From NCBI RefSeq assembly GCF_003334785.1, contig NZ_QOWV01000002.1: a DNA stretch of 64,000 nucleotides; one strand, 5' to 3'. The notes under the pieces are model-generated. The model saw only the letters and a program-made list of their open reading frames with translations. It ran no database searches and had not been told where the DNA came from. Source of the DNA: Escherichia coli (GTDB lineage Bacteria; Pseudomonadota; Gammaproteobacteria; Enterobacterales; Enterobacteriaceae). Each line of letters begins with the position of its first letter. The first letter of the stretch is position 1. Positions 54,068-62,057 of this stretch are shown piece after piece. The translations under genes were made by a program, and so were the position numbers.

Positions 54068-54085
54068 TTTTTTTTAACTCTCACG

Positions 54086-54109
54086 CTTACCCTGAATATT
54101 CAGGGTAAG
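54086..54109. other. Perfect 24-bp palindrome CTTACCCTGAATATTCAGGGTAAG downstream of maeB (terminator hairpin or operator-like site)
   Basis: Exact reverse-complement symmetry about the central AATATT; lies 19 bp after the maeB stop and ~250 bp upstream of eutS. Confidence 0.5.
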
Positions 54110-54359
54110 CAGTTTAGCTGCAATATATTAGTAAAGCTTATTACTGAGTTTGCGAATAATAAAAAAAAGCAGTCTATATAATATCTCGATATTATTTTAT
54201 TTATATTCATGCGTTGCATATGAAAGTTTATGCACCACAGCGAATATCTCTCCATTCTTAGTGATCTACCTCACCTTTTAAACGCGCTTGCCGAATTTTG
54301 TTATTTACTCTGACGAAAAATTGTCACGATACACGAAAGTTTTTCACAGGCGGCGACTC

Positions 54360-56663: not shown

Positions 56664-57676
56664 TTATTGAACGTTGTCGTGAACTGGCGTTGCGAGCGCC
56701 CGCCAGAGTGGTTTTTCCGGATGCGTTAGACCAACGTGTGCTGAAAGCCGCGCAATATTTACATCAACAAGGTCTGGCAACGCCCATTCTGGTCGCCAAT
56801 CCGTTTGAACTTCGTCAGTTTGCGCTCAGTCACGGCGTGGCGATGGACGGGCTACAGGTGATTGATCCGCATGGCAACCTCGCAATGCGGGAAGAATTTG
56901 CTCATCGCTGGCTGGCCCGCGCGGGCGAAAAAACGCCGCCGGATGCGCTGGAAAAACTTACCGACCCTCTGATGTTCGCCGCAGCAATGGTCAGCGCCGG
57001 TAAAGCGGATGTCTGTATCGCGGGCAACCTCTCTTCCACGGCAAATGTGCTGCGTGCCGGATTACGCATTATCGGCTTGCAGCCAGGCTGTAAAACGCTC
57101 TCTTCCATTTTCCTGATGTTGCCACAGTACAGCGGCCCGGCGTTGGGCTTTGCCGATTGCAGCGTGGTGCCACAGCCGACGGCGGCGCAGCTGGCGGATA
57201 TCGCGCTTGCCAGTGCCGAAACCTGGCGCGCCATCACCGGAGAAGAGCCGCGCGTGGCGATGCTGTCGTTTTCCAGCAATGGTAGCGCCCGTCACCCCTG
57301 TGTTGCTAACGTCCAGCAGGCGACAGAAATCGTCCGTGAGCGCGCACCAAAGCTGGTGGTGGATGGCGAGTTACAGTTTGACGCCGCCTTCGTGCCGGAA
57401 GTGGCGGCGCAAAAAGCGCCTGCCAGCCCGCTACAGGGCAAGGCCAATGTGATGGTTTTTCCGTCGCTGGAAGCCGGAAATATTGGTTACAAAATCGCAC
57501 AACGACTCGGCGGATATCGTGCCGTCGGGCCACTGATACAAGGACTTGCCGCGCCGATGCACGATCTCTCTCGTGGTTGTAGCGTGCAGGAAATTATCGA
57601 GCTGGCGCTGGTGGCAGCTGTGCCGCGTCAGACAGAAGTGAACCGCGAAAGCAGTTTACAAACACTGGTTGAATGA
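56660..57676 (+). CDS. eutD: Phosphotransacetylase EutD (EutI)
   Basis: 338 aa PTA-family enzyme; ATGA overlap with eutT. Confidence 0.9.
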
Positions 57677-57714
57677 ACGGTCCCGTTCTGGACCCTGATA
57701 AAGAGGAAAGCACA

Positions 57715-58008
57715 ATGGAAGCATTAGGAATGATCGAAACCCGGGGCCTGGTTGCACTGATTGAGGCTTCTGACGCGATGGTGAAAGCTGCGCGCGTCAA
57801 GCTGGTTGGTGTTAAGCAGATTGGCGGCGGCCTGTGTACTGCCATGGTTCGTGGTGATGTTGCAGCCTGTAAAGCCGCGACCGATGCAGGTGCCGCAGCG
57901 GCACAGCGTATCGGCGAGCTGGTATCTGTACACGTTATCCCGCGTCCGCACGGCGACCTGGAAGAAGTCTTCCCGATCGGCCTGAAAGGCGATAGCAGCA
58001 ACCTGTAA
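57715..58008 (+). CDS. eutM: Major hexameric shell protein EutM (BMC-H)
   Basis: 97 aa from [28 protein letters not shown]; canonical BMC domain; the ORF track is extended by 14 codons. Confidence 0.92.
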
Positions 58009-58114
58009 TCACCCTGTGTGACGTCGATTCGGGCGTCACGCTCTCTCCTTTTTCATTTTACCTTCTGCGGAGGGTAGGGGGAGCTTTTACCTGAAATACG
58101 CCACGGAGGCGGGT

Positions 58115-58402
58115 ATGAAACTGGCAGTCGTCACTGGACAAATTGTTTGTACCGTACGCCATCACGGACTGGCGCATGACAAATTGCTGATGGTGGAAAT
58201 GATTGATCCACAAGGTAATCCTGACGGGCAATGCGCCGTCGCCATCGACAATATTGGCGCGGGAACCGGGGAGTGGGTGTTACTGGTGAGTGGCAGTTCC
58301 GCCCGCCAGGCGCATAAAAGCGAAACGTCACCGGTCGATCTGTGCGTGATTGGCATTGTCGATGAGGTGGTGTCTGGCGGTCAGGTAATTTTCCACAAAT
58401 AA
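58115..58402 (+). CDS. eutN: Pentameric vertex shell protein EutN (EutN/CcmL family)
   Basis: 95 aa from MKLAVVTGQIVCTVRHHGLAHDKLLMVEM. Confidence 0.9.
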   Translation: MKLAVVTGQIVCTVRHHGLAHDKLLMVEMIDPQGNPDGQCAVAIDNIGAGTGEWVLLVSGSSARQAHKSETSPVDLCVIGIVDEVVSGGQVIFHK

Positions 58403-58413
58403 GGCAGAACATC

Positions 58414-59817
58414 ATGAATCAACAGGATATTGAACAGGTGGTGAAAGCGGTACTGCTGAAAATGCAAAGCAGTGACACGCCGTCCGCCGCCGTTCATGAG
58501 ATGGGCGTTTTCGCGTCCCTGGATGACGCCGTTGCGGCAGCCAAAGTCGCCCAGCAAGGGTTAAAAAGCGTGGCAATGCGCCAGTTAGCCATTGCTGCCA
58601 TTCGTGAAGCAGGCGAAAAACACGCCAGAGATTTAGCGGAACTTGCCGTCAGTGAAACCGGCATGGGGCGCGTTGAAGATAAATTTGCAAAAAACGTCGC
58701 TCAGGCGCGCGGCACACCAGGCGTTGAGTGCCTCTCTCCGCAAGTGCTGACTGGCGACAACGGCCTGACCCTAATTGAAAACGCACCCTGGGGCGTGGTG
58801 GCTTCGGTGACGCCTTCCACTAACCCGGCGGCAACCGTAATTAACAACGCCATCAGCCTGATTGCCGCGGGCAACAGCGTCATTTTTGCCCCGCATCCGG
58901 CGGCGAAAAAAGTCTCCCAGCGGGCGATTACGCTGCTCAACCAGGCGATTGTTGCCGCAGGTGGGCCGGAAAACTTACTGGTTACTGTGGCAAATCCGGA
59001 TATCGAAACCGCGCAACGCTTGTTCAAGTTTCCGGGTATCGGCCTGCTGGTGGTAACCGGCGGCGAAGCGGTAGTAGAAGCGGCGCGTAAACACACCAAT
59101 AAACGTCTGATTGCCGCAGGCGCTGGCAACCCGCCGGTAGTGGTGGATGAAACCGCCGACCTCGCCCGTGCCGCTCAGTCCATCGTCAAAGGCGCTTCTT
59201 TCGATAACAACATCATTTGTGCCGACGAAAAGGTACTGATTGTTGTTGATAGCGTAGCCGATGAACTGATGCGTCTGATGGAAGGCCAGCACGCGGTGAA
59301 ACTGACCGCAGAACAGGCGCAGCAGCTGCAACCGGTGTTGCTGAAAAATATCGACGAGCGCGGAAAAGGCACCGTCAGCCGTGACTGGGTTGGTCGCGAC
59401 GCAGGCAAAATCGCGGCGGCAATCGGCCTTAAAGTTCCGCAAGAAACGCGCCTGCTGTTTGTGGAAACCACCGCAGAACATCCGTTTGCCGTGACTGAAC
59501 TGATGATGCCGGTGTTGCCCGTCGTGCGCGTCGCCAACGTGGCGGATGCCATTGCGCTAGCGGTGAAACTGGAAGGCGGTTGCCACCACACGGCGGCAAT
59601 GCACTCGCGCAACATCGAAAACATGAACCAGATGGCGAATGCTATTGATACCAGCATTTTCGTTAAGAACGGACCGTGCATTGCCGGGCTGGGGCTGGGC
59701 GGGGAAGGCTGGACCACCATGACCATCACCACGCCAACCGGTGAAGGGGTAACCAGCGCGCGTACGTTTGTCCGTCTGCGTCGCTGTGTATTAGTCGATG
59801 CGTTTCGCATTGTTTAA
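58414..59817 (+). CDS. eutE: CoA-acylating acetaldehyde dehydrogenase EutE
   Basis: 467 aa aldehyde dehydrogenase family protein with an N-terminal encapsulation-like extension. Confidence 0.9.
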   Translation: MNQQDIEQVVKAVLLKMQSSDTPSAAVHEMGVFASLDDAVAAAKVAQQGLKSVAMRQLAIAAIREAGEKHARDLAELAVSETGMGRVEDKFAKNVAQARGTPGVECLSPQVLTGDNGLTLIENAPWGVVASVTPSTNPAATVINNAISLIAAGNSVIFAPHPAAKKVSQRAITLLNQAIVAAGGPENLLVTVANPDIETAQRLFKFPGIGLLVVTGGEAVVEAARKHTNKRLIAAGAGNPPVVVDETADLARAAQSIVKGASFDNNIICADEKVLIVVDSVADELMRLMEGQHAVKLTAEQAQQLQPVLLKNIDERGKGTVSRDWVGRDAGKIAAAIGLKVPQETRLLFVETTAEHPFAVTELMMPVLPVVRVANVADAIALAVKLEGGCHHTAAMHSRNIENMNQMANAIDTSIFVKNGPCIAGLGLGGEGWTTMTITTPTGEGVTSARTFVRLRRCVLVDAFRIV

Positions 59818-61841: not shown

Positions 61842-62030
<189 letters not shown>

Positions 62031-62057
62031 AATAACAACTAACAGGGAGTAAAGGCG

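Follow-up and report, generated by a model that had tools for sequence, protein, structure and literature searches.

A conserved double hairpin downstream of eutM in Escherichia coli: a candidate protective 3' structure within the eut operon

Between eutM, which encodes the major shell protein, and eutN, which encodes the vertex protein, the eut operon of Escherichia coli carries a 106-nt spacer that is predicted to fold into two hairpins in the sense mRNA. The reading that we favor, tentatively and at a probability of roughly 0.42, is that this double hairpin works like a REP, as a protective 3' structure that blocks mRNA decay. The module can only contribute a few-fold at most to the EutM:EutN ratio, at the RNA level, and is not its main determinant; any transcription termination at either hairpin is weak, that of a leaky terminator at most. 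The conserved double hairpin is a candidate for an element not yet described in the eut operon (a literature search found no paper describing a hairpin between eutM and eutN), and the kind of operon fine-tuning that it would represent is ordinary.

The window, by which we mean the entire 64,000-nt stretch of E. coli DNA that was analyzed, has the following features in and around the spacer:

57715..58008, + strand: coding sequence of eutM (97-aa major hexameric shell protein; TAA stop at 58006-58008; the matched region is annotated eutM in RefSeq)
58009..58114, + strand: 106-nt spacer between eutM and eutN (unannotated; one copy per genome)
58016..58041, + strand: hairpin 1, predicted 10-pair stem (58016-58025 with 58032-58041), 6-nt loop GAUUCG, dG -16.2
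58041..58060, + strand: C/U-rich tract CTCTCTCCTTTTTCATTTTA, initially annotated as a T-tract; hairpin 1 tail and hairpin 2 5' arm plus internal loop
58043..58083, + strand: hairpin 2, with an outer helix pairing 58043-58049 to 58077-58083 and an inner helix pairing 58059-58065 to 58070-58076
58085..58098, + strand: UUUUACCUGAAAUA, single-stranded tail after hairpin 2, followed by the eutN Shine-Dalgarno sequence GGAGG
58105..58117, + strand: eutN Shine-Dalgarno sequence GGAGG (58105-58109) and ATG (58115-58117), predicted to be largely accessible
58115..58402, + strand: eutN coding sequence (pentameric vertex protein, 95 aa)

The flanking genes are eutD, which ends at 57676, and eutE, which begins at 58414. 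Over the 730 bp of eutM-eutN the window matches K-12 derivatives with 100% identity, and this stretch was found in 5407 of 5426 complete E. coli genomes. Gene boundaries and repeat positions confirmed the initial annotation of a 106-bp spacer at 58009-58114 containing GTGACG (58018-58023) and CGTCAC (58034-58039); with a gap of 4-30 nt allowed, this exact inverted repeat occurs once in the 64-kb window, against 0.06 occurrences expected by chance. The accompanying description of the spacer as unusually long holds against most other junctions of the operon, which overlap or measure 10-38 nt, but not against the eutG-eutH spacer of 216 nt. Searches in blastn mode, even at E <= 10, placed the spacer at a single location in each of 5408 of 5426 E. 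coli genomes, and it is therefore not a dispersed repeat. Rfam 15 covariance models applied to 57000-59000 at E <= 10 returned only a chance match (E = 9.9) inside eutD, and a scan of the spacer for internal promoters found none on either strand. Two promoter candidates picked out by eye were rejected: TGAAAT does not have the A at position 2, and TAAAAT on the minus strand is not accompanied by a -35 element.

In the predicted fold, hairpin 1 begins 7 nt from the eutM stop codon, and 6 of its 10 stem pairs are G-C, giving the G+C-rich stem and short loop sought in a terminator. Hairpin 2 is predicted to span 41 nt, with a 9-nt internal loop, an apical UGCG loop and a dG of -16.8 to -18.7. The T-rich tract initially annotated behind the hairpin did not hold up; CTCTCTCCTTTTTCATTTTA is C/U-rich, as opposed to a U-run, and is itself predicted to form part of hairpin 2. 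The minimum free energy of the whole spacer is -43 kcal/mol (z = -3.2), a stability reached by 2 of 200 shuffles, and the reverse strand is less stable (-31.8, z = -2.1). G.U pairs account for 5 of the 24 hairpin pairs, and the U always lies in the 5' arm, so that the fold would form only in the sense RNA; a DNA palindrome or an antisense structure is accordingly a poor reading of the repeat.

In order to gain insight into conservation, one genome per species was searched; 48 loci around eutN were recovered, and 42 of them gave an eutM-eutN spacer. The two-hairpin layout recurs in Escherichia, the Citrobacter freundii group and Klebsiella spallanzanii. When 16 sequences from Escherichia, Citrobacter and K. 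spallanzanii were aligned, 91.5% of pair cells held standard pairs, compared with 45-60% when the 3' partners were slid by 1-3 columns. The core stems are invariant in this alignment, and covariation is therefore uninformative there; the inner helix of hairpin 2 shows two-sided changes, AU to GC three times and CG to UA twice. Hairpin 1 extends further, to Buttiauxella, Entomohabitans and Yokenella. Its 8 consensus pairs are intact in every one of 17 sequences, which represent seven genera, and none is broken; the core UGACG/CGUCA is invariant in the seven genera, and two-sided changes occur at two pairs (G-C to A-U in Yokenella at one, and C-G, U-G and U-A at the other). The loop ranges from 4 to 23 nt in these 17 sequences and measures 6 nt only in Escherichia.

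Outside the hairpin 1 loop, the spacer of E. coli is 81-87% identical to those of Citrobacter and K. spallanzanii, whereas synonymous third positions of eutM and eutN in the same comparisons are 61-73% identical; the excess of spacer identity over synonymous sites has p values of 1e-6 to 7e-4 (tested against 0.66). The best conserved part is the tail UUUUACCUGAAAUA, which is matched at 14 of 14 positions in most rows of Citrobacter and K. spallanzanii, and at 13 of 13 in the Citrobacter R56 group, which has a 1-nt deletion; its ACCUGAA core is present in Buttiauxella and Entomohabitans as well. A sample of three E. coli strains and E. whittamii yielded five SNP sites in the spacer, which either fall in loops (58028, 58056 and 58066) or retain pairing (58014 C>T, giving a U-G pair, and 58080 G>A, converting U.G to U-A). 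As judged from these comparisons, the eutM-eutN spacer is under purifying selection.

The octamer TTTTACCT occurs twice in the spacer, at 58056-58063 in the internal loop of hairpin 2 and at 58085-58092 just past hairpin 2, and in Buttiauxella A111 the motif lies directly 3' of hairpin 1. This repeat and the Buttiauxella arrangement suggest that hairpin 2 may have been inserted or duplicated into an older layout of 'hairpin 1 + UUUUACCUGA'. In E. coli strain 90-1 (NZ_CP050047.1; L052:2580-3840) the spacer carries an IS911 element, at the equivalent of 58084-58086 in the window, with a 3-bp CTT duplication; the element sits between hairpin 2 and the eutN ribosome-binding site and leaves eutM and the hairpins ~1.25 kb from eutN.

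The same conservation pattern bears on the notion of a role at the DNA level or in trans, in which GTGACG...CGTCAC would serve as a protein-binding site on the DNA, or the module would be released as a small RNA derived from the 3' end of eutM. The half-sites are strictly conserved. Hairpin 2 with its following UUUU would resemble the 3' end of an Hfq-type small RNA, and pairing of the C/U-rich stretch with Shine-Dalgarno-like sequences is conceivable. Yet the gap between the half-sites varies from 4 to 23 nt, ill-suited to a dimeric DNA-binding protein, and the G.U pairs tie the fold to the sense RNA; for a released RNA, there was no Rfam match, no 3' end in uninduced Term-seq data and no such RNA in the literature searched. 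We regard a role of this sort as highly improbable.

The 42 orthologous spacers, which range from 52 to 211 nt, differ in what occupies the junction: hairpin 1 in 24, 1-3 REP units instead in 14, and other GC-rich hairpins in 4. REP-type spacers, which hold no trace of hairpin 1, were found in Salmonella, the Klebsiella pneumoniae and oxytoca groups, C. amalonaticus, C. koseri, C. sedlakii, Pseudocitrobacter and Pluralibacter; the other-hairpin spacers belong to Intestinirhabdus, Pseudomonas and two Rhodocyclaceae. With a REP unit defined as a ~35-nt imperfect palindrome of consensus GCCGGATG...CTTATCCGGCCTAC, each of the 14 REP-type spacers contains 2-6 motif matches. All 42 spacers have a hairpin with a dG of at most -11.9 kcal/mol that starts no more than 30 nt from the eutM stop codon, and the median z-score of their folds is -2.1. 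T-tail scores run from 0.7 to 3.6 in hairpin-1 spacers and are near zero in most REP-type spacers; Yokenella, Entomohabitans and the REP-type spacers lack a U-tail. The trait common to the lineages is a stable stem-loop 3' of eutM, not a terminator. The E. coli spacer was also considered as a REP or BIME element in its own right and rejected as such, as hairpin-1-type spacers have no REP motifs and the E. coli spacer is single copy, as opposed to the many dispersed copies of REP elements.

We consider the replacement of a lineage-specific hairpin by REP units across genera to be the most interesting aspect of the junction, and the presence of REP units in place of the double hairpin in sister genera is the strongest circumstantial support for a protective structure. 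K. spallanzanii (L042) has the Escherichia/Citrobacter-type double hairpin and an EutM C-terminus of SSNL, as in E. coli, whereas the other Klebsiella (L028-L030 and L035) have REP-type spacers and EutM endings of SNI; this contrast suggests that the eutM-eutN region of the operon has been exchanged laterally. Elsewhere in the window, no spacer in the visible part of the operon is longer than that between eutG and eutH (61842-62057, 216 nt), which is made up of four REP units in two BIME-like pairs that are nearly identical (GCCGGATGCGACGCTTGCCGC.TCTTATCCAGCCTAC and GTAGGGCGGATAAGGCGTT.ACGCCGCATCCGCC).

An opposing account of these observations is that the spacer has no dedicated function, being a tolerated remnant that collects palindromes and REPs, with only the eutN ribosome-binding region under selection. 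The stretch 58085-58114, which comprises the tail and the ribosome-binding site, is the best conserved, so selection could act on eutN translation initiation instead of on a protective structure; the hairpin sequences are freely exchanged for mobile REP elements, which may accumulate wherever a spacer tolerates them, with no selection involved; and one E. coli strain carries IS911 inside the spacer. Set against this, the stem of hairpin 1 is either unchanged or altered with compensation across seven genera that have a synonymous identity of only ~50-70%, while its loop is free to change, compensatory changes are seen in hairpin 2, and a hairpin is never lost altogether among the 42 lineages. 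We think an absence of function improbable.

Published expression data were consulted for the genes on either side of the spacer. RNA-seq of AIEC strain LF82 (PMC6379400), a single study at gene resolution, gave the following RPKM values in minimal medium and with bile salts:

eutD: 108 minimal medium, 357 bile salts
eutM: 55 minimal medium, 177 bile salts
eutN: 5 minimal medium, 62 bile salts
eutE: 14 minimal medium, 149 bile salts
eutJ: 13 minimal medium, 147 bile salts
eutG: 35 minimal medium, 168 bile salts
eutH: 106 minimal medium, 514 bile salts
eutB: 61 minimal medium, 358 bile salts

From eutM to eutN the signal drops 11-fold in the basal and 2.9-fold in the induced state (PMC6379400), although comparable steps are seen between other genes of the operon (eutT at 83 versus eutD at 357), so that the dip at eutN may be noise. 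The basal state has a step at the spacer; once the operon is induced, only eutN remains low, and the genes beyond it are at the eutM level or above (eutE, eutJ and eutG at ~0.85 of eutM, and eutH, eutA, eutB and eutC higher; PMC6379400). The top eut gene in this data set is eutH (514 RPKM), which lies just 3' of the eutG-eutH REP units. In LF82, eutM exceeds eutN under both conditions. No sense-strand 3' end or Rho-termination region was reported at the spacer in Term-seq of uninduced MG1655 (Adams et al. 2021 supplements); the TERMITe supplements, data in which the eut operon is silent, likewise list no 3' end at the spacer. The Term-seq data do contain a weak 3' end antisense to eutM, at 57938 of the window on the minus strand (MG1655 2572217 +; Adams et al. 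2021, supplementary file 1), which is located 11 nt beyond the minus-strand hairpin that the inverted repeat 57949-57965 / 57968-57984 makes. As this end is located inside eutM, the antisense transcript crosses the eutM 3' end and possibly the spacer.

At the protein level, the relative abundances reported for E. coli K-12 W3110 grown on ethanolamine plus B12 (PMC11334477) were:

EutQ: 100
EutM: 96
EutL: 39
EutB: 37
EutE: 27
EutD: 10
EutN: 1

EutM was the most abundant and EutN the least abundant shell protein, and EutE, which is encoded directly after eutN, was 27 times as abundant as EutN (PMC11334477); the EutN figure may be an underestimate, given that it comes from mass spectrometry of a 95-aa protein. 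The induced eutM:eutN ratio is ~3 for RNA and ~100 for protein, so most of the protein ratio arises elsewhere. Similarly, eutD RNA exceeds eutM RNA but EutD protein is ten times lower than EutM, which indicates that translation dominates Eut stoichiometry. A role of the hairpin in setting the EutM:EutN ratio is not supported by these figures, neither by the RNA and protein ratios nor by the 27-fold excess of EutE over EutN, and the ratio cannot be due mainly to termination.

Another possibility is that the spacer is a translational insulator, a long structured stretch that uncouples eutN from the very high ribosome flux over eutM. Ribosomes finishing at the eutM stop codon would be unable to slide to eutN or re-initiate there, EutN synthesis would rely on the eutN initiation region alone, and the vertex protein would stay rare. 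An RNA ratio of ~3, far below a protein ratio of ~100, would place control mainly at translation. The spacer lies exactly between EutM (96) and EutN (1), with EutE at 27 just downstream, whereas most other junctions of the operon overlap or measure 10-38 nt; a hairpin with no U-tail is the sole feature common to 42 of 42 orthologous spacers, and both the position and this rule fit an insulator equally as well as a decay barrier. The eutN initiation region itself speaks against it. The Shine-Dalgarno sequence is strong (GGAGG, duplex -9.5 kcal/mol), and the predicted unpaired probabilities are 0.59 for the Shine-Dalgarno sequence and 0.77 for the AUG, with an opening energy of 12-14 kcal/mol, in the middle of the range for the operon and no worse than for other eut genes. 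Occlusion of the ribosome-binding site by a long-range helix (58011-58014 with 58111-58114) was examined and rejected, as the Shine-Dalgarno sequence and AUG are predicted to be mostly unpaired and the pattern is inconsistent across species. With a strong ribosome-binding site that is predicted to be open, the spacer alone does not account for low EutN, the level of which is perhaps underestimated by mass spectrometry. Insulation by the spacer is, in our estimation, unlikely.

The possibility of a leaky intrinsic terminator was weighed on the same data. By this account, some RNA polymerase would dissociate after eutM, either at hairpin 1 and the C/U-rich tract behind it or at hairpin 2 and UUUUA, and transcription of eutN and later genes would be reduced. 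A consensus scan flagged 58016-58041 as terminator-like; a pyrimidine- or U-rich tail follows hairpin 1 in Escherichia, Citrobacter and Buttiauxella, one Buttiauxella tail (UUUCUUUAA) scoring an nT of 3.6; UUUU is invariant after hairpin 2; and the uninduced LF82 values fall from 108/55 for eutD/eutM to 5/14/13 RPKM for eutN/E/J. The scan, however, yielded 20 sites in 14 kb against 17.7 in shuffled sequence, and a single match consequently carries little weight. The tails have nT values of 2.0 (hairpin 1, UCUCUCCUUUUU) and 3.2 (hairpin 2, UUUUACCUG), and the combined scores are below the discriminant: d'Aubenton-Carafa-type d scores were -20 for hairpin 1 and -18 for hairpin 2, as compared to +17 to +39 for three references (trp t, the his attenuator and lambda tR2), the calibration being rough. 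A U-tail is not conserved among the orthologous spacers, induced eutE, eutJ and eutG remain at ~0.85 of eutM with eutH, eutA, eutB and eutC higher, the EutE, EutB and EutL proteins are abundant, and the Term-seq study, in which the operon was uninduced, reported neither a sense 3' end nor a Rho-termination region. Partial termination as the role of the spacer is unlikely. The initial annotation had offered termination or stabilization of transcripts after eutM as alternatives; the stabilizing half fits a genuine sense-RNA structure under purifying selection with REPs in sister genera, and the terminating half is undercut by the sub-threshold scores, the unconserved U-tail and induced eutE, eutJ and eutG levels close to that of eutM.

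We reasoned that a protective 3' structure would account for these observations as follows. An endonuclease would cut downstream, either within eutN, where translation is sparse, or at the single-stranded GC/UUUU just past hairpin 2 (the slash marking the cut), and PNPase and RNase II, which proceed 3' to 5', would degrade back until one of the two hairpins halts them. The mRNA next to eutM, which is heavily translated, would thereby outlive the eutN segment, the thinly translated RNA 3' of the structure being open to RNase E. An RN/WUU-like site (GC/UUU, 58083-58087) is single-stranded after hairpin 2 in the predicted fold, and several such motifs are present in eutN, the motif being low in information. 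Terminating ribosomes probably melt the base of hairpin 1, which lies only 7 nt past the stop codon, and hairpin 2, 35 nt downstream, would therefore be the safer barrier.

Protective 3' structures, including that at malE-malF, stabilize the operon gene that is more needed and more densely translated, and they are conserved (PMC5927463); differential decay affects at least 12% of E. coli operons, the malE-malF element being the founding case (Dar & Sorek 2018; PMC5927463). The eut spacer resembles these elements in having a stable structure at the 3' boundary of eutM, the more abundant RNA segment in LF82, and in its conservation among related species. Protein output stands at 96 for EutM and 1 for EutN. 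The term 'eut' occurs 0 times in the published decay data set (PMC5927463), the operon being silent under the conditions used. Counting against a protective structure, the related pdu operon has no comparable spacer after pduA: in both Salmonella and E. albertii this gene shares 4 nt with pduB. A general rule of a hairpin after the major BMC-H gene was discarded on these grounds, and the hairpin is, as judged from the pduA-pduB junction, not a general feature of microcompartment operons.

Among described systems, the closest likeness is to the malE-malF REP/BIME of malEFG (PMC5927463), likewise a conserved intercistronic stem-loop just 3' of the most heavily translated gene, whose product is required in excess; the eutM-eutN spacers of Salmonella, Klebsiella and several Citrobacter even contain actual REP units. 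The E. coli eut element differs in being non-REP and single copy, with a sequence of its own and two hairpins. In the puf, pap and cfa operons, the gene for a structural protein made in excess (the antenna protein or the major pilin) precedes a hairpin at the boundary of a long-lived mRNA segment, and minor components are encoded on the unstable segment. The Rhodobacter capsulatus pufBALMX, papBA and cfaAB operons are listed as examples of differential decay (PMC5927463). The position of eutM, an excess structural gene upstream of a hairpin, is alike; the systems and hairpin sequences are unrelated, and eutE to eutK are themselves required at fair levels and well expressed, so that only eutN appears depressed.

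The operon-internal attenuators of E. coli, rpsU-dnaG-rpoD T1 and rplL-rpoB, are documented partial terminators. They share with the eut spacer a hairpin and a U-containing tail between highly and less expressed genes of one operon, but the terminator scores at the eut spacer are sub-threshold and the downstream RNA recovers to the upstream level. Hairpins inside a eut cluster, in a two-hairpin arrangement, are also known from Enterococcus faecalis, in which terminators controlled by the ANTAR protein EutV precede eutP, eutG, eutS and eutA and require EutV/EutW (PMC5821096). An ANTAR substrate has two hairpins, each with a hexanucleotide loop, of which the second overlaps a true terminator; the eut operons of enterobacteria have EutR as their regulator (PMC5821096). 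The spacer was ruled out as an ANTAR substrate by its loops (4-23 nt in hairpin 1 and 4 nt in hairpin 2), its position and the EutR-type locus.

A broader proposal is that the eutM-eutN junction constitutes a selected 'structure slot' in enterobacteria and some other Proteobacteria, at which a stable hairpin is always kept and the fillers (double hairpin, domesticated REPs or GC-rich stems) are interchangeable, and which would set facet:vertex stoichiometry post-transcriptionally through segmental mRNA decay, ribosome uncoupling or both. In this full form we hold the proposal to be quite unlikely; if true, it would be a natural case of REPs replacing a lineage-specific RNA element of the same function. 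Unequal output of shell proteins from a single microcompartment transcript is mostly attributed to ribosome-binding-site strength, and a conserved structure 3' of the main shell gene, swapped for REPs in sister genera, is an easily mutated candidate for a post-transcriptional contribution. In practical terms, eutM cloned with or without its 3' spacer may differ in expression, which matters for re-engineering of the eut shell. The expected effect is modest and the principle, as in malEFG, puf and pap, is decades old; the spacer would be an added example and not a new concept.

At the other end of the operon, the maeB-eutS intergenic region (54068-54359) is very A+T-rich and contains a perfect 24-nt palindrome, CTTACCCTGAATATTCAGGGTAAG, at ~54087-54110, just past the maeB stop codon; this region presumably combines the maeB terminator and the eut promoter region.
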